Assembly: GCF_006345805.1 (NCBI RefSeq)
Contig: NC_043013.1
Span: forward strand, 47,120,001 to 47,184,000
Direction: 5' to 3'
DNA length: 64,000 nucleotides
Source of the DNA: Octopus sinensis
Lineage: Eukaryota
Shown here: one piece after another, positions 9,003 to 52,057 of the stretch
Layout of the letters: the number at the start of each line of letters is the position of its first letter
Numbering within the stretch: the first letter of the stretch is position 1
Translations under genes and position numbers: made by a program
The notes under the pieces: model-generated
Databases searched by the model: none
Told to the model about the DNA's origin: nothing
Seen by the model: only the letters and a program-made list of their open reading frames with translations

Positions 9003-9259
9003 ACGCGTGGCTTAGTGGTTGGCATAAATCGATGTATATTAAACCAAACAATAATAGATTCAAATGAAACAGCAGCACTACTAATGATGCAAGTTCTTCC
9101 TGCTGAATTTCATTTTAGTTTCGTTCAACATGACCTTCTTCCTTTTCTTTTTACGCTCTCTCTTCCGTCTCTCGCTTTTGCTATTGTTACATGTACAATG
9201 GTAGTTCTTTTCCTTCAGAATCAAAGACATTAACATACCACCCACGGTCAAATAAGTTC

Positions 9260-9289
<30 letters not shown>

Positions 9290-9290
<1 letters not shown>

Positions 9291-9460
9291 TGAGTCCATT
9301 ACATCAACACCAGTGTTTAACTAGTACTTATCTTATTGACCCCGAAAGAATGAAAGGCAAAGTCGATCTCGGCGGAATTTGAACTCAAAACGCAAAAACG
9401 GACGGAATACCGCTTTTTATTTTGTCCGGCGTACTAACAATTCTGCCAGCTCACCGCCTT
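9290..9460 (-). mobile_element. SINE family B monomer
   Basis: Head GGCGGTGAGCTGGCAGAATTGTTAG, B box GAGTTCAAATTCC, body GCCTTTCATTCTTTCGGGGTC. Confidence 0.85.
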
Positions 9461-9479
9461 ACTCACGGTCAAATACCCA

Positions 9480-9846
9480 TTTTAAATTTTCGCACAAGGC
9501 CAGCAATTTCTGGCCAGTGTTCAACTGGTAGTCATTTTATCAAAAACGAAAGGATGAAAAGGAAAGTCTACCTCGACGGAATTTGAATTCAAAAGGTAAA
9601 AATTGATGAAATACCTATTTCTTTACTACCCACAAGGGGCTAAACACAGAGAGAACAAACAAGGACTGACACACGGATTAAGTCGATTATATCGACACCA
9701 GTGCGTAACTGGTACTTATTTAATCGACCCCGAAAGGATGAAAGGCAAAGTTGACCTCGGCGGAATTTGAACTCAGAACCTAACGGCAGACGAAATACCG
9801 TTAAGCACTTCGCCCGGCGTGCTAACGACTATGCCAGCTCGCCACC
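9480..9846 (-). mobile_element. SINE family B dimer (tail-1 unit then tail-3 unit)
   Basis: One head; junction AAAGAAATA|GGTATTTC near 9615. Confidence 0.88.
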
Positions 9847-12800
9847 CTACTCACGGTCAAATATTGCTAACAGTTCTCTGATTCACTTAATTTTTCTTTC
9901 TATGCTGGAGGAAACTATTAATGACTATTCAGTAGAAACTGAGAAATTTGATAATCACCAAAGTTTTAATGGAAATCAAATAGATGGTATTTTACATAGA
10001 ATATTAGAACTTTTATAGAAATAGATTACTGTTTATGTTTCTTCAGTTACATTAGATGAAATGTTCCCCGAATCCGATGGGTTCTGATACTCAATTCAGA
10101 TAAAATATTCTATCAAGAAAACTGCAGCATCTTCGAAAGATGCATGGAATATGTAAACTATATAAATGAGAGAGAGATTAAATGTTATATAGATGGAATG
10201 AGATATAAACAAATATACACGGCGTAATTAATAGATATGATAAGCAGATACTAATACAAACAATGACTCGATAAAAAAAATATCAACAACAGGTTTATAA
10301 GATTAGATATTTGAAAATAAGCAAAATAAAATATATCTATATAACAGGTAAATGCAATCATTAAAGGTAATTAATAATGATAAAAACCTAGCATCACCAC
10401 TCACTAATGGATGGAAATATCCATAAATCTTAAATAAAATGTAAATAAATGTTAGAGAAGAAGATAAATCAGTATTACACAACAGAGATAACAAAAGCAT
10501 CAGCTACACATAGATAAAATATCTTACCATTGAATATGAGAAATACATTAAAACATATCAATAGATGTTGATAGAACTAAATATTATTATTTTCAACTAT
10601 TTCTAGTTAGATTAAAGGAAATATAATTAGAAGAAACTGATCGAAATAACAACACTTCTGAAGTAGGAGACTTAATGAAAATACGTTGCTGATAAAATAA
10701 CTAAATATGTCAATGGATGAGTGAATAACATGAACACAAAAAAGAAATAATCATATAAATAAATAAATATATCCGTGAATAAATACAAAACTGTTATTGC
10801 TTTGTTTGAAATACAGTTCGGCATATTTAAAGACGGAGGAAGATATAAGTAAAATGTTTGTCTTGAAAAGACATAATTTCAGAGAATATTGTATTAATTA
10901 AAATGTTGAATATAATCTGAATAATGAAAAGATGGGGGCCTGGAAATCTGTATACAGTAATGTTGTTAGCTGAAACTGATTTATGAAAATCAAGTCTGTA
11001 TATTTGTAGGGTGTATAGAGGTTAAACATTTGTTTTTGTTTTGAATAGATTTTATATAACAACAGATTATTTTGTATTTTTAAATTCTTGTAAGAAATAT
11101 TAAGAATGTGAACTATCACATGGACGGATCGCCAGGAAAGCAACGAAGAGAACAACGGTTCATGTATCACCACAGAATTTGTTGCTTCAACCCTGGTTAG
11201 TCTCGACCGAGCTGACATATCATCAAAGCGTGTCAGCCGAGTCCATTCTAATTGAGGGGAAAGGTAGGGTGCTATTCTACTGCAAGCTGGGCTGATATAT
11301 TTCGCCACTAAGGATTGTAGTTGCTTTATAAACTTGAAATAAATTTCATCGTCTCCAGAGACAAGTTTATGTTACATGCATGTAAAAATAAAAATAGGAA
11401 CTGGCTGGAGAGACTGCAGAGTTCCGGGAGGAAGGAAAGTTAACAGTGATATGAGTACTGCCTCTTTATGTAGATTGTATTTCTGTGTAGTAGTTTGGAA
11501 AAGAGAAACTAGTAATTTGTATGCCTGGTTGATACAATACAAAATTCATGCTGCAGTTTTAATTAATCATTCATATATAGTTTGGCTTATTGAACTACCA
11601 GTGTCATATCATTTAATAAAAAAAATAATAAGCGTCCTCATCAGGGCAGATGTTTTAAAATGTTCTGGAGCGTTAATTGTTTCATTGATTTATTTTAAAT
11701 ATTATTATAATAGCCCAGGTCAATCAATATTGATGCAATGATTGCTTTAAGTAATATTTAATTACGTTTGGGCAGTATCAAGATCTCTAGATAGTTGTCA
11801 ATGTGCAGAATCTGTAAGCTGGGGCAAGCAGTTAAAGATACTTCCCTTACATCAACTATGCTGTTCCACAAACCTGCTATGACTTCACTTTTGTTTTTAC
11901 TGTAGAAATACGTTTTCTAATAGTACATAAGAAATTAATATTTATACCCCATTCTATCACGATCACCAAAGTTTTATGTGATGTACTAACCGAATCCCAA
12001 TTCGACAAAAATCAGTTTTGCCATTCGTCCTTCCAAGAAAAAAGTAAGTAACTTCTAAGTTCGATTATGCCCTTAATTTGATCAACAGTACTCTTTAATT
12101 TATAAATGATCTGAGAAGTTTATTTTCATCCTTGCTGTATTTTTTCTCTGTGAGATAAGTCCACATATTCTTTGAGAAGAGATATAATTATGTCGATTGA
12201 CTTATCACTGTTATTTATTTTTTGAATACTGAAAAATTCTCCGGCACTAATTTACCAAAAAAACTATTCACCGATTAGCAGGTTAATTACCGGTAATTGA
12301 CCGGTTAATATATTCCCTGATTGCAAATTGTTAATTATTATCAATACTCCAATAAAATATCTAAAACAAAAATATACTTAATGATCACCAAAATTATTTG
12401 AAACATGAAAACATTGATAAAACATTGAAGAGATTTCTAAAATAAGAGTGTTCAGACTAACTGGCTTAAATATGCAGCAATTACTCCACATCAAGCCGTT
12501 TTATTGTAGAGGCACTGTCACGATATATTTTTCAGTACAAAGAAAGCTTTTCTTAATTGATGATTTCTTGGTCAGTGAACTAACGTCGGTCAATTACTTT
12601 TCCTAAATTTTCCGTTGTCTCTTAGCTATTTATCGAAGGACTTTTTAACGGAATGGTTTCTAACGAGTGACTTTTTTTTACAAAATAACGTTTTACATTT
12701 AATAAAATAAGGTTATTAAAGAATTATTTTGCAAAATAGTTATAATTATAGGATACTTTTAAATATAGAATAATTTGTGATATAAAATATGTGCTACTGT

Positions 12801-19744: not shown

Positions 19745-20116
19745 AAAAGTTAGTTGTGTTACACAGTGTCTGAACTGGCCCTTATTCATTCATGCTTCAA
19801 CACGATATTACTTATACGTACAACTGAAGACTGCAAATTAGTCCAACATAACACCATGTCAGTATATTCTTTATCTAATGATTTTATCCTGTTAGCTGGC
19901 ACATTGTTTCAGAACATTACCAGAACGCGTACTAGGTTTCGTCTTCTTGATCTCGTTCTTCTTCTTCTTGTAGTTGCCATTGCAGCATTTTATTTCTTTC
20001 TTTTGGTGACTTTCCTTTAGTTGATGTTTGTACAGCCGTTTCGCTTTAACGTTTTGTTACTGTTATTTCTTTTCATAAATAAATGTTTTGCTGTAAATGG
20101 CGGCTGCTACGTTGCT

Positions 20117-21054
20117 GGCGAGCTGGCAGAATCGTTAGCATGCCGGGCGAAATGCTTTGCAGTATTTCGTCTGCCGTTACGTTGTGAGTTCAAATTCCGC
20201 CGAGGTCGACTTTGCCTTTTATCCTTTCGGTGTCGATAAATTAAGTACCAGTTACGCACTGGAGTCGATGTAATCGACTTAATACCTATGTTTGTCCTTG
20301 TTTGTCCCCTCTGTGTTTAGCCCTTTGTGGGTAATAACGAAATAGGTATTTCGTCCGCCGTTACGTTGTGAGTTCAAATTCCGCCGAGGTCGACTTTACC
20401 TTTTATCCTTTCGGGGTCGATAAATTAAGTACCAGTTACGCACTGGAGTCGATTTAATCGACTTAATACCTATGTCTCTCCTTGTTTGTCCCCTCTGTGT
20501 TTAGTCCCTTGTGGGTAATAAAGAAATAGGTATTTCGTCCGCCGTTACGTTGTGAGTTCAAATTCCGCCGAGGTCGACCTTGCCTTTCATCCTTTCGGGG
20601 TCGGTAAATTAAGTACCAGTTACGCACTGGGGTCGATGTAATCGACTTAATACCTATGTCTGTCCTTGTTTGTCCCCTCTGTGTTTAGCCCCTTGTGGGT
20701 AATAAAGAAATAGGTATTTCGTCTGCCGTTACGTCGTGAGTTCAAATTCCGCCGAGGTCGACTTTACCTTTCATCCTTTCGGGGTCGATAAATTAAGTAC
20801 CAGTTACGCACTGGAGTCGATGTAATCGACTTAATACCTATGTCTGTCATTGTTTGTCCCCTCTGTGTTTAGTCCCTTGTGGGTAATAAAGAAATGGGTA
20901 TTTCGTCCGCCGAGCTCGACTTTGCCTTTTATCCTTTCGGGGTCGATAAATTAAGTACCAGTTACGCACTGGAGTCGATGTAATCGACTTAATACCTATG
21001 TCTGTCCTTGTTTGTCTCATCTATGTTTAGCCCCTTGTGGGTAATAAAGAAATA
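20117..21054 (+). mobile_element. SINE family B tandem array: one head plus five 184-bp units
   Basis: GTATTTCGTC unit starts at 20162, 20346, 20530, 20714, 20898; fifth unit has a 26-bp deletion. Confidence 0.95.
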
Positions 21055-21443
21055 GCTATATCTACAACAGTTATTTTTGTTTGAGGATTTTCTTCATGTC
21101 AATTGTTGTTGTCATGATGGCATTGTTGAAATTGTTCCTGTTGTTCTGTTGTTGTTCTTCATCTCGCTTCTGTTGCTGCTGATTACCCTGTTGTTGCTAT
21201 TGTTGATATTGTCACTCGAACTGTTTTGTTCCTTTTTTTTTCCATTCTCTTTTACCATTGCTACCGTTGTTTGTTGTGTTGTCCATGTTCCTGCTCCCGC
21301 TATTGTCACTTAATCACTGTCCCCCACTTGCTGCTGTTTCTGTCGTCTATGATATTATTATCACTGCTGCTGCTGATGCTGCTGCCGTGTTTTGTTGTTA
21401 TGTGTTTCTTGCCCAGTCCTACTACAGTGAGCTTCCACTGCTG

Positions 21444-29330: not shown

Positions 29331-30094
29331 AATCCTTTCTACTAGAGTCACGAGGCCTGAATTTAGTGGGAGGGGACTAGTCGTTTACATCGACCCCAGT
29401 GCGTAACTGGTACTTAATTTATCGACCCCGAAAGGATGAAAGGCAAAGTCGACCTCGATGGAATTTCAACTCAGAACATAAAGACAGACGAAATACCTAT
29501 TTCTTTACTACCCACAAGGGGCTAAATACAGAGAGGACAGACAAGGACAGACAAACGGATTAAATCGATTATATCGACTCCAGTGCGTAACTGGTACTTA
29601 TTTTATCGACCCCGAAAAGATGAAAGGCAAAGTCGACCTCGGCGGAATTTGAACTCAGAACGTAGCGGCAGACAAAATACCTATTTCTTTACTACCCACA
29701 AGGGGCTAAACACAGAAAGGACAAACAAGGACAGACAAACGGATTAAGTCGATTATATCGACTCCAGTGCGTCACTGGTACTTATTTAATCGACCCCGAA
29801 AGGATGAAAGGCAAAGTCGACCTCGGCGGAATTTGAACTCAGAACGTAAAGACAGACGATACCTATTTCTTTACTACCCACAAGGGGCTAAACACAGAAA
29901 GGACAAACAAGGACAGACAAACGGATTAAGTCGATTATATCGACCCCAGTGCGTAACTGGTAGTTATTTAATCGACCCCGAAAGGATGAAAGGCAAAGTC
30001 GACCTCGGCGGAATTTGAACTCAGAATGCAAAGACAGACGAAATACCGCTACGCATTTCACCCGACGTGCCAACGTTTCTGCCAGCTGGATGCC
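29331..30094 (-). mobile_element. SINE family B tandem array: head plus three tail-1 units plus one tail-2 unit
   Basis: Periodicity 184, 184, 182 bp (anchors 29391, 29575, 29759, 29941). Confidence 0.95.
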
Positions 30095-32136: not shown

Positions 32137-34684
32137 CAGTAGTTTTATTTTTATAGCGTGCTTTCACTTCACTACCGAGCGCAGCTCTGTGTGCCTTGGG
32201 TATGTGCTGTGATTTGTTGTGATGCTCTGATGGTTATTGTATGGAAAGTGTTCTGCGTAGGATGTGTGCAGTGCCTAGTAGTGCAATTTTCTGTATGTTA
32301 TATGTGTTTGTAAGTCCTGGTGTTTTTGTTATGTATTTGTCTGAATATTTTTTTATCATGCCTAATGCACCTACTATGATAGGAATTGTTTCTGTTTTTA
32401 GATTCCACATTCTGGTTACCTCTATTTCCAGGTCTTTGTATTTTGAGAGTTTCTCCATTTCTTTTAGAGACACGTTGTCATCTGCCGGTATTGATACATC
32501 AATTAGAAAGCATTTTTTTTCTTCATGATCTCTGACAACTATATCTGGCCTGTTGGCCTTAATTTCTCTATCTGTGTGTATCGGCATATCCCAGAGTATG
32601 GTTGCTTTCTCATTTTCTGTGACCTTTTCTGGTGTGTGCCTATACCATCTTTTTTCTGTTGTTATTCCATAATGTTGGCATAGCTTCCAATGTATGTAGG
32701 TTCCAACTCTGTCATGTCTGTGAATATATTCCTTCTTAGCCAGGACTGGGCAGCTAGAGATAATATGATTTATTGTTTCTTGTCCATCTCCACATATTCT
32801 GCAGTTACTTGTTATATTTCTTTTCATTACATGTTTTTGGTAATTTCTTGTGCTGCAATTAAAAATCCCTCTGTTTCTGCTTTGAGTCCTGAGCTTCTCA
32901 ACCATTGCTGGGATTTTTCTTTGTTTATTTCTTTTGCGTTTAGTTTAGTGCAGTATTTACCATGAAGGGGCTTTTCTTGCCATCGTTTTATCATGGCTCG
33001 TTGCTGTTCTATTTTTAGTTTGGATTTCATTTGTTTTATAGCTTTTGTTGTTTCTTCATCATCTTCTTCTTCTTTGGTTTATTATAGGTGGTATGATTTC
33101 TTGTTTGTATTTGTCAGCTTCCTTAAATACTGAGAACAGTTTTTTGTTTTGCTCGTGTTTTGCTGCTATCTGGATCAGTTCCTTCCTTCTGAAGTAGGTA
33201 TTTTTGCAGTCCTATGGTGGTTATTTTATAGTAGTTTTCCAGCTGTATAAGGCCTCTACCACCTTCTATACGTTTTATATGAAGTCTTTCTATGTCAGAT
33301 TTTGGGTGATGCATCCTAGATCCTGTCATTATTTTTCTTGTTTTCCTATCTATTTTGGTCAGTTCATTTCGTGTCCAGTTAAGGATATTGTAGCTGTAAC
33401 TTATAACTGGGACAGCTAAAGTGTTAATACCTATTATCTTGTTTTTAGCATTGAGCTCGGATTTTAGTATTGATCTAACTCGTCTATATAATTCTTTTTT
33501 TATTTCCTCTTTCATTTGTGTGTGTTGTGTCTTATCTAGTTCATGGATTCCTAAGTATTTGTAAGTTTGGCTTTGGTCTAATTCTTTTATTTCATTGGTT
33601 TTATCTAGTGTGATGTTGCTACTCTTAACTAGTTTTTTCCTCTTTTCATGGTTACTTTGGCGCATTTTTCTAATCCAATTTCATATCTATTTCTTTGGTA
33701 AATCCATGAACTGTCTTTAATAGTGTTTCCAGCTGTTTGTCATTTGCAGCGTATAGTTTTAGGTCATCCATATATGAAAGGTGGCTGATCGTTTTGCCGT
33801 AACATTTATATCCGCATCCAGTTATATTTAGTATATCAGATAGAGGTGACAGTGCCAAGCAGAAAAGGAGTGGAGAGAGCGTGTCCCTGGAATATTCCTC
33901 TTCTAATGGGGATGTCTTTGGTTTTCATGAGTCCCTCTTTTGTTTGGAGGTGTAGGACTGTTTGCCATTTATTCATAGAGTGCTCTATGAATTTTATGAT
34001 TGTTGGTGCTACTTTGTTAATGGCTAGTGTTTCGAGGATCCATGTGTGAGGGATGCTATCAAACGCCTTTTTGTAGTTAATCCAGGCCATACTGAGGCCT
34101 TTCTTCTTTCTGTGGCTGTCTTCAGTTATGGCTTTATTAATCATTAGTTGAACTTTGCAGCCATATGAGCCTTTGCGGCATCCTTTCTGCTCTTCTGGGA
34201 ACAGTTTGTTTTCGTCCAGGTGCTTGTTCAACCTTTGCGATATCACTGCAGTAAATGCTTTGAACATTGTAGGGAGGCAGGTTATTGGTCTGTAGTTTTC
34301 TGGTTTTGCTGTCTCATTTGATTTGGGAATTAAGATGGTTTTCCCCTTCGTAAGCCATCCAGGCATTGTCTCTGGCTCTGCTAGTATGTTGTTAAAGTTT
34401 TCAGCCAGCTTTTTGTGCATTCCTGTTAGATATTTCAACCAGAAGTTGGGGATCTTATCATGCCCAGGTGCCTTCCAGTTGCTTAGTCTTTACAGTGCCT
34501 GAGTGACCTCTTCAGTTGTTATGGGGGTCCAAAGTTGTTCAGATGCTGAGTTTGTTATTTTGATACTCCTTTTTTGTTGTTGTTCGTTCGCCGACCATAT
34601 TTCTCTCCAGAATTCTTCCAATTCTTCTGCCGTTGGTGCTGCAGTGACTTCTATTTTATTTTTGCCAAGTTCTTGGTAGAACTT
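32137..34684 (-). mobile_element. R4/Dong-clade non-LTR retrotransposon, 5'-truncated, RT plus RLE with frameshifts
   Basis: NWKAPG, NYRPITCL, EEQKGC, YKKAFDSI, RGIFQG, YMDDLKLY, CRICG..H..C, RHDRV, NRPDIVV, LIDVSIP; flanked by (TAA)n on both sides, the established Dong-type target. Confidence 0.95.
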
Positions 34685-49964: not shown

Positions 49965-50305
49965 TGGTAAGCTGTCATAATCATTAGCACGCCGGGTAAA
50001 ATGCTTAGTGGTATTTCGTCTGTCGTTACGTTCTGAGTTCAAATTCCGCCGAGGTCGACTTTGCCTTTCATCCTTTTGGGGTCGATAAATTAAGTACCAG
50101 TTACGCACTGGGGTTGATGTGATCGACTTAATCCCTTTCTTTGTCCTTGTTTGTCCTCTCTGTGTTTAGCCCCTTGTGGGTAGTAAAGAAATAGGTATTT
50201 CGTCTGTCATCGGGGTCGATGAATAAGTACCAGTTGAGCACTGAGGTTGATTTAATCAACTTTCCTCCTCCCATGAAATTGCTAGCCTTGTGTCAGATTT
50301 GAACT
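49965..50305 (+). mobile_element. SINE family B dimer (tail-1 unit plus deleted tail-3 unit)
   Basis: Junction AAAGAAATA|GGTATTTCGTC near 50193. Confidence 0.88.
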
Positions 50306-50939: not shown

Positions 50940-51218
50940 CTATACAGACATAAAGGTGGTGTTGAAACGGATTGCTTGGTATACGGTGACCTTTATGAAT
51001 GAATGATTTTCATTCTGAAAGACAATGAGCCAAAGTCTCCTGGAAGAAGCCGATACCTATTAAATACAACCCTGTATCTCACTGTGATTGATGCCATTCT
51101 CAGAGAAAGCTTTTCAGATACCTAAAAGATGGCACTGCTAACACCTGTTCGTCACAAACATTCAAAAGCAAACATAGTAAGCATTACATTGGTTCGCAAC
51201 TCTCTTGGTAAAAGTGGC

Positions 51219-51670
51219 TTCAAATTTTGGCTCTAGACCCGCAATTTCGGCGAAAGGAGTAAGTCCATCACATCGTCGCTAATGATCTATTGGTATTTAT
51301 TTTATAGACCCCGAAAGGATGAATGGCAAAGTCGACCTCGGCGGAATTCGAACTCAGAACGTAGCGGCAGACGAAATACCTATTTCTTTACTACCCACAA
51401 GGGGCTCAACACAGAGAGGACAAACAAGGACAGACAAACGGATTAAGTCGATTATATCGACCCCAGTGCGTAACTGGTACTTAATTCATCGACCCCGAAA
51501 GGATGAAAAGCAAAGTCGACCTCAGCAGAATTTAAGCTCATAATGTAGCGTCAGACGAAATGCCGCTAAGCATTTCGCCCGGCGTGCAAACGTTTCTGCC
51601 AGCTCGCCGCCTTTTGTAGCGGCAGACGAAATACCACGAAGCATTTTGTGACGATTCTGCCAGTTCGGCA
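51219..51670 (-). mobile_element. SINE family B dimer plus an extra partial head (51615-51670)
   Basis: Junction near 51380; tail 3 at 51219-51270. Confidence 0.85.
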
Positions 51671-52057
51671 CTATAACTCTTTTATAATCACTTTTTTAAT
51701 TCGAATTCTGCAAAGGACGACTTTGCCTTTCATCCTTTCGGGATTGATAAAATAAATATCAGTTGAGCATTGGGGATCTATGTAATCATGCATACGTAAT
51801 TCATCAGCATTTAGGTGGGGCAGTTGTAGCTCCACGGGTTGGGGAAATGCATTTGACAGACGGCTTGGTCACTATCATATAATGATTAGTCCAAGTGCTG
51901 ACTTTTGGATTTATGATAACATATAAAGACATATTCATCAGGGGGTAGGAAACTAATTGTATTACCTGAGTAATTTGCGTGCGTGCGTGTGTATGTATGT
52001 GTGTGTATGTCTGGGTGTGCATGTGTATGCATGTGTTCATGTGTGTGTGTGTGTGTG

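Follow-up and report, generated by a model that had tools for sequence, protein, structure and literature searches.

Tandem 184-bp arrays of an octopus SINE probably arise by insertion of new copies at a fixed site within resident members of the same family

This report concerns a family of short interspersed elements (SINEs) of Octopus sinensis whose copies are joined head to tail in 184-bp arrays. It starts from a 64,000-nucleotide stretch of contig NC_043013.1 (positions 47,120,001 to 47,184,000; hereafter, the window), with the array at window positions 20117-21054 as the focal locus. We think it likely that the arrays are chains of copies with a particular 3' tail, tail 1a, built by new copies inserting at nucleotide (nt) 45 of resident family members, the 5' end being joined through homology. 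An earlier note on the window had suggested that older relatives are the targets of tail-1 copies, which would enter them at ..GC^GGTATTTC (the caret marks the join). The suggestion is supported by target duplications that carry host-private variants, by a truncated copy inside a host at one further locus (L130), by the greater age of terminal units, by a matching motif at targets outside SINEs, and by a 40-fold drop in occupancy of sites with C at nt 45.

The SINE is 228 nt long, with a tRNA-like head (nt 1-44) and a repeating unit of 184 bp (nt 45-228). At the focal locus, a single 44-nt head precedes five 184-bp units, of which unit 5 is shortened to 158 bp; the coordinates and the tandem build had been given exactly in the earlier note, and Tandem Repeats Finder reports a period of 184, 4.1 copies, 95% matches and a score of 1362. 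The parts of the array are as follows.

20117-20160, + strand: tRNA-like head, SINE nt 1-44, AATCG type, 3' end GCTTTGC
20161-20344, + strand: unit 1, SINE nt 45-228, minor 'AATACCTATG / GGGTAAT' variant of tail 1
20345-20528, + strand: unit 2, entered through the join GAAATA^GGTATTTC
20529-20712, + strand: unit 3
20713-20896, + strand: unit 4, 3' end GAAATG
20897-21054, + strand: unit 5, 158 bp, with a 26-bp internal deletion between CCGCCG repeats; then non-SINE DNA

The focal joins have the sequence shown for unit 2 and lie at SINE nt 45; the fourth, GAAATG^GG, is the one that had been noticed for its G in place of the last A. Their position, stated earlier as about 45 nt into the head and between the A and B boxes, was found to fall between an A-box-like TGGCAGAAACG and a B-box-like GAGTTCAAATTCC, both recognised by eye. 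ARAGORN called no tRNA in a consensus-like head. A hairpin predicted for nt 1-96 has the junction in its loop (z-score -0.55, not significant). The element is short and non-coding, is represented by tens of thousands of exact junction words, is flanked by duplications of 9-25 bp and shares its 3' tail with a long interspersed element (LINE), all of which are features of tRNA-derived SINEs. All five focal units are of the minor variant, which was met in only about four other units of the sample, and variants are shared by subsets of them (56C by units 2 and 3; 98A and 205T by units 2 and 4). Much of the focal array was probably made by local duplication or by re-insertion of its own transcripts; we assign this array, which has tail 1 throughout, to neither insertion nor duplication as its route of growth.

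Tail 1 comprises two subtypes, 1a (..GGGTAGTAAAGAAATA), the internal kind, and 1b (..GGGCAATAAAGAAATA), which is mostly terminal. The earlier description of all upstream units as tail 1 is borne out, with this subdivision. Terminal tails of arrays are of at least four kinds. With tail 1b, there is another fixed junction, GAAATA^AGAAACGTTAGC, located at nt 12 of the head (L014, L010, L020, L008, L034, L072 and L130).

The genome searched amounts to 2.72 Gb. A 22-mer spanning the junction had 27,479 exact matches in it and the head version of the same site had 23,815, compared with 0 for the reversed controls. Because of this difference, we conclude that the junction site is fixed genome-wide and is not due to chance. 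The earlier note had called for a catalogue of the sequences that follow tail 1. Among the first 100 exact tail-1a ends in the matches listed, 55 run directly into SINE nt 45, as do 69 of the 140 tail-1 ends in fetched loci. The 79 stretches fetched around those first 100 ends, typed by module BLAST, contain 41 solitary head-core-tail-1 elements and 11 dimers, besides arrays with tail 2 or 3 at their end and a single array of 10 units. The SINE thus has a defined preferred insertion sequence, located at nt 45 of the SINE itself.

A single base of the site has a large effect on occupancy. Units that start with CG are found after tail 1 in 237 cases and after their own head in 17,967, against the 27,479 and 23,815 cases given above for GG-start units, so that occupancy falls 40-fold with C at nt 45. 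The CG start is linked to the head variant GCGTAGC (13 solitary copies, 4 arrays). Although this tail-1a lineage is nearly never present downstream of tail 1, arrays with such a copy as their first unit do exist, and the lineage may represent a landing site that has escaped use.

Insertion into resident copies was sought genome-wide with the pattern 'host nt 47-55, 9-16 nt, new head'. Unit starts followed by a new head gave 64 matches, the control gave none, and 30 loci, representing about 26 separate places, were fetched. At six independent loci (L084, L086, L087, L091, L094/95 and L100-102), the host resumes past the insert with an identical stretch of 16-20 nt, and the two copies of the stretch have 1-5 non-consensus bases in common, i.e., variants private to that host. 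The remaining fetched loci had no matching duplicate. At L130, a 39-nt 5'-truncated piece of a tail-1 element lies between two copies of GGTATTTCATCCGT (a 14-bp duplication) inside a tail-3 host. A separate observation made with the same pattern is that ten of its 'unit start + new head' matches lie at an exact spacing of 67 bp at G000:C3430:1379-2204, which looks like a satellite whose repeat combines the head with ~17 nt from the start of the unit.

A case of this kind is present in the window at locus E. The five window loci had been described as having a single head each, which holds for the focal locus and for arrays A, C and D; locus E has a second, older head and a 20-bp copy of host nt 45-64 upstream, and is for this reason read as a full-length copy inserted with a duplication, rather than as a single-headed array. 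The two copies of the duplication match at 20 of 20 positions. The parts of locus E are as follows.

51636-51671, - strand: old head of the host tail-3 SINE, AATCG type
51616-51635, - strand: upstream copy of the 20-bp target duplication, GGTATTTCGTCTGCCGCTAC, equal to host nt 45-64
51381-51615, - strand: incoming full-length tail-1a SINE, with leader AAAAGGC, its own AAACG head (51565-51608) and its unit (51381-51564)
51216-51380, - strand: host remainder, from nt 45 to tail 3; its first 20 bp are the second copy of the duplication
51216-51608, - strand: the array part formed with the incoming SINE, i.e., head, tail-1a unit and terminal tail 3

Locus E is among the rare non-seamless cases, in which 10-25 bp of the host are duplicated from nt 45 onward. 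A seamless 5' junction, as proposed in the earlier note, is the usual arrangement, apart from these cases.

The relative ages of the joined parts were determined on 30 loci each of the junction followed by CATCCG and of the head followed by CATCCG, a start that marks tail-2/3-type units (168 and 124 genome-wide matches, respectively). Intactness was scored at the 7 CpG sites common to both consensus sequences. In terminal units of the tail-2/3 type, 90/143 CpGs (63%) were intact, similar to 102/179 in solitary copies of that type, while the tail-1a unit directly upstream retained 126/150 (84%) and solitary tail-1a copies 302/341. Compared pairwise, 13 terminal units retained fewer CpGs than their neighbour, 4 retained more and 5 as many; in another sample, the corresponding numbers were 19, 5 and 3. 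The median core divergence was 12.3% for terminal units, a value inflated by mixed subfamilies, and 5.1% for the adjoining internal units, with the same direction in 18 of 22 pairs. More positions were constrained by the search pattern in the terminal unit than on the other side, so that its bias runs against this result. We conclude that terminal units are older than the adjoining upstream tail-1a unit and that each part is as old as its own family. Such a distribution of ages fits sequential insertion and speaks against any one-event origin.

The heads of arrays are young. At non-CpG sites, heads of arrays with old terminal units diverged at 24/468 positions, solitary tail-1a heads at 56/1030 and solitary tail-2/3 heads at 78/555; array heads are therefore about as young as the first unit and close to solitary tail-1a copies. 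The resident head has thus probably been overwritten through homology. The first units of arrays had the host's CATCCG start in 0 of 15 cases, and the sharing of variants at nt 45-68 between unlike neighbours was weakly above that in shuffles (3 vs 0.8; 17 vs 11.3). Taken with the head divergence, these results indicate that an array consists of a young head and young unit(s), followed by an old host from nt 45. Since first units mostly lack a host-derived start, the homology step would have to replace both the head and the start of the host. Priming of the host's top-strand end on the complementary DNA (cDNA) was dropped as a model on account of the same 0/15 and of the weak excess of shared variants. 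The head type at position 16 is mixed in arrays (12 A, 6 T); it was set aside as a sole host marker, since some T heads go with an AG-start variant of tail 1a.

The preference for the site extends to DNA outside SINEs. Target duplications were counted at a score of at least 9 and are 9-25 bp long; 25 of 47 tail-1a ends outside SINEs had one. The flanks at these 25 ends begin with TAT in 13 cases, GGT in 5, GAT in 3, A in 2 and other sequences in 2. GGTA was found in both duplication copies at L012, L029, L062 and L064, and is therefore target-derived. SINE nt 45-49 are GGTAT, in agreement with the tail-1a target motif. For tail 1b, the first flanking base is A in 6 of 7 cases, and the second junction at head nt 12 (AGAAAC) agrees with this A-start motif of solitary tail-1b copies.

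A route by which insertion at nt 45 could build the arrays can be outlined. RNA polymerase III would transcribe the SINE RNA from the tRNA-like head. A LINE protein would bind the shared tail, and a nick of the bottom strand before GGTAT would prime cDNA synthesis, as in target-primed reverse transcription. The head of a full-length cDNA would then pair with the resident head and be fixed without the usual top-strand cut; the resulting insertion allele would have the incoming head and no duplication, the resident head having been overwritten. As a rarer outcome, the top strand would be cut 10-25 bp downstream (the conventional second nick), leaving a duplication and a second head. Every insertion would recreate the site and lengthen the chain. 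Long arrays are enlarged further by unequal exchange. Under this scheme, a GC^GGTATTTC target would be hit more often than GC^CGTATTTC. A bolder version, to which we give clearly less credence, is that the SINE brings a landing pad with it and propagates in the manner of a homing element, its cDNA being fixed without second-strand cleavage and overwriting the resident promoter while adding a unit; that the superfamily already has more than half of its usable sites occupied; and that the G45C lineage (~18,000 exact copies) has escaped targeting. An escape of this lineage as a target, while arrays still begin with its copies, would point to an arms race between copies of the SINE.

Several observations weigh against insertion at nt 45 as the source of the arrays. 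The majority of joins are seamless and without duplication, and insertion there is argued from ages and analogy, not seen directly. A host-derived start had been predicted for first units and proved mostly absent, and the excess of shared variants at nt 45-68 is weak. The mixture of subfamilies that inflates tail-2/3 divergence affects the age comparison, the CpG test being less exposed to it. The youth of the CG subfamily could partly explain the scarcity of occupied CG-type sites. The LINE 3' ends described below do not share the target. Arrays without a head, starting with a truncated unit (L006, L010, L018, L072 and L109), fit one-event models better and are not accounted for by simple homing, and template switching by the reverse transcriptase at 5' ends does happen: at L082, L088 and L053, one outer duplication encloses a full SINE with a SINE fragment joined to its upstream end (~nt 24-68 in some, nt 1-30 in others), which is the signature of such switching.

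Some of these points would be expected if a chain were made in one event, with cDNA synthesis on any RNA of the family starting at a genomic nick, copying back to nt 45, jumping to the 3' end of a tail-1a RNA and repeating until a head is copied. The absent host start, the headless arrays and the 5' chimeras, which show that switching occurs, all agree with this scheme, as does the constant co-derivation of head and first unit (the linkage of GCGTAGC and the CG start). We nevertheless regard it as unlikely. The parts of a chain made at once should be equally old, but terminal and adjoining units have retained CpGs to different extents, each as in the solitary copies of its own family. The internal duplications with private variants and L130 are left unexplained, and among ~11 truncated solitary copies, breaks at nt 45 are no commoner than elsewhere. 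A similarly low probability is given to multimer masters, i.e., a few dimers that arose once, are read through and retrotranspose whole, with unequal crossover changing the number of units. The unit consensus, which would be transcribed through, has no run of four T; private variants and higher-order patterns occur in several arrays (L058, with 10 units; L039; L008; L117-122); the focal array has its subset-shared variants and single minor variant; and outer duplications surround whole composites at L069, L034, L071, L023, L008 and L020 (by eye). However, descent from one master dimer, an alternative already raised in the earlier note, does not agree with the first units of arrays, which are as mixed in subfamily markers as solitary copies, nor with the different subfamilies within one array (L049, L023) or the variety of terminal tails, and both the age asymmetry and the bias against CG-type starts are unexpected from it. 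Duplication at the DNA level is supported as a second step that lengthens arrays, not as the origin of the junction; the satellite-like features, array-private variants and higher-order units, concern array growth only. As its alternative, the earlier note had offered a retrozyme-like origin, in which a 184-nt circular RNA is reverse-transcribed by a rolling-circle mechanism. This accounts for the head-to-tail layout with a constant junction only, and we consider it extremely improbable: Rfam gave no family, hammerhead or other, at E up to 1 on window positions 20000-21200, so that the self-cleaving ribozyme of a retrozyme unit was not found, and the arrays have a single 5' head, last units with other tails, and units unlike in subfamily and age.

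A LINE partner of the SINE was sought by its tail at the 30 best zf-RVT loci. Sixteen of them end in a match of 27-47 nt to SINE nt 172-228 (81-97% identity), most matches being 43-44 nt long and located ~540-580 bp downstream of zf-RVT; one (L193) has both RVT_1 (6.7e-30) and zf-RVT (1.7e-10). The last ~44 nt of the SINE thus match the 3' end of an L1-group LINE, the class of this candidate partner being assigned from the Pfam domains RVT_1 and zf-RVT only. None of the 16 LINE 3' ends with a homologous tail is followed by GGTATTTC, so that the common target of LINE and SINE, which the earlier note had proposed to look for, was not observed. The 16 copies may belong to a family that is sister to the true partner. 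No match to the tail was present at the 12 best RVT_1 loci, none of 362 tail matches in 809 kb is a LINE end, and a stretch near C17 ~40.04 Mb contains SINE arrays only and no LINE open reading frame. The window itself has a degraded L1-group LINE at 32140-34489 (- strand; RVT_1 9e-14, zf-RVT 9.4e-05); it was rejected as the partner, as it ends in (TAA)n and its 3' end is unlike tails 1-3. At different loci (L186/L187/L196 and L194/L199), LINE copies with a tail-1-like end are followed by the same repeated sequences, and this LINE family may have a preferred repeat target of its own. At G000:C9:76607599-76623724, zf-RVT matches lie 3,573-3,578 bp apart, a spacing that points to head-to-tail LINE copies or parts of such.

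At loci A, C, D and E of the window, 1-3 tail-1 units precede a last unit whose tail is of type 2 (C) or type 3 (A, D and E), as the earlier note had stated for four of its five loci. The three arrays not yet listed are as follows.

9480-9843, - strand: array A, head, one tail-1a unit and a terminal tail-3 unit, the latter much more diverged
29331-30091, - strand: array C, head, three tail-1a units and a terminal tail-2 unit ending in (ATT)n, with TTA repeats on both sides
49966-50305, + strand: array D, head (AATC type, diverged), one tail-1a unit and a terminal tail-3 unit with an internal deletion

Around array A (window 9230-9900, - strand), the word TATTTGACCGTGAGTA occurs three times: before the array, between it and a second SINE whose tail is (TC)n, and, in a slightly altered form, beyond that second SINE. 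Here, one target was probably used twice, giving a tandem pair that sandwiches a duplication.

LINEs of the R1/R2 type have a fixed insertion point, are helped to precise joins by homology between RNA or cDNA and target, and pile up head to tail. The octopus SINE seems to resemble them in its fixed site, homology-aided joins and pile-ups; unlike these elements, which target rRNA genes with self-encoded enzymes, it is non-coding and targets its relatives. In the satellites of molluscs that derive from SINEs or from miniature inverted-repeat transposable elements, a portion of a mobile element is repeated in tandem. The long octopus arrays show DNA-level expansion as these satellites do, but differ in that a single fixed junction recurs at tens of thousands of loci, that the units are ordered by age and that there are target duplications. 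The closest described case found is SINEU-3 with the Tx1-Mar LINEs of crocodilians, where tandem copies sandwich a duplication (Kojima 2015, PMC4494074); the likeness lies in an enzyme borrowed from a target-specific LINE. Compared with that description, the octopus landing site is inside the SINE's own family (nt 45), the joins are mostly seamless, lacking both a sandwiched duplication and a second head, the resident head seems to have been replaced, and the LINE was not found at the SINE site (0/16). In the literature searched, including passages of the octopus repeat paper PMC13282606 (2026) and of PMC4494074, no account of SINE self-targeting or of 184-bp arrays in cephalopods was found.

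Insertion at nt 45 of resident copies would provide a concrete and testable route from a dispersed SINE to satellite-like arrays, each insertion recreating the site, and roughly half of all nt-45 sites are occupied in this 2.7-Gb genome. If true, homology-assisted target-primed insertion would have a natural example here, with a bearing on how the 5' half of the reaction, which is poorly understood, is completed. For the annotation of cephalopod repeats, the practical consequence is that copy counts and age estimates are distorted by such chains.
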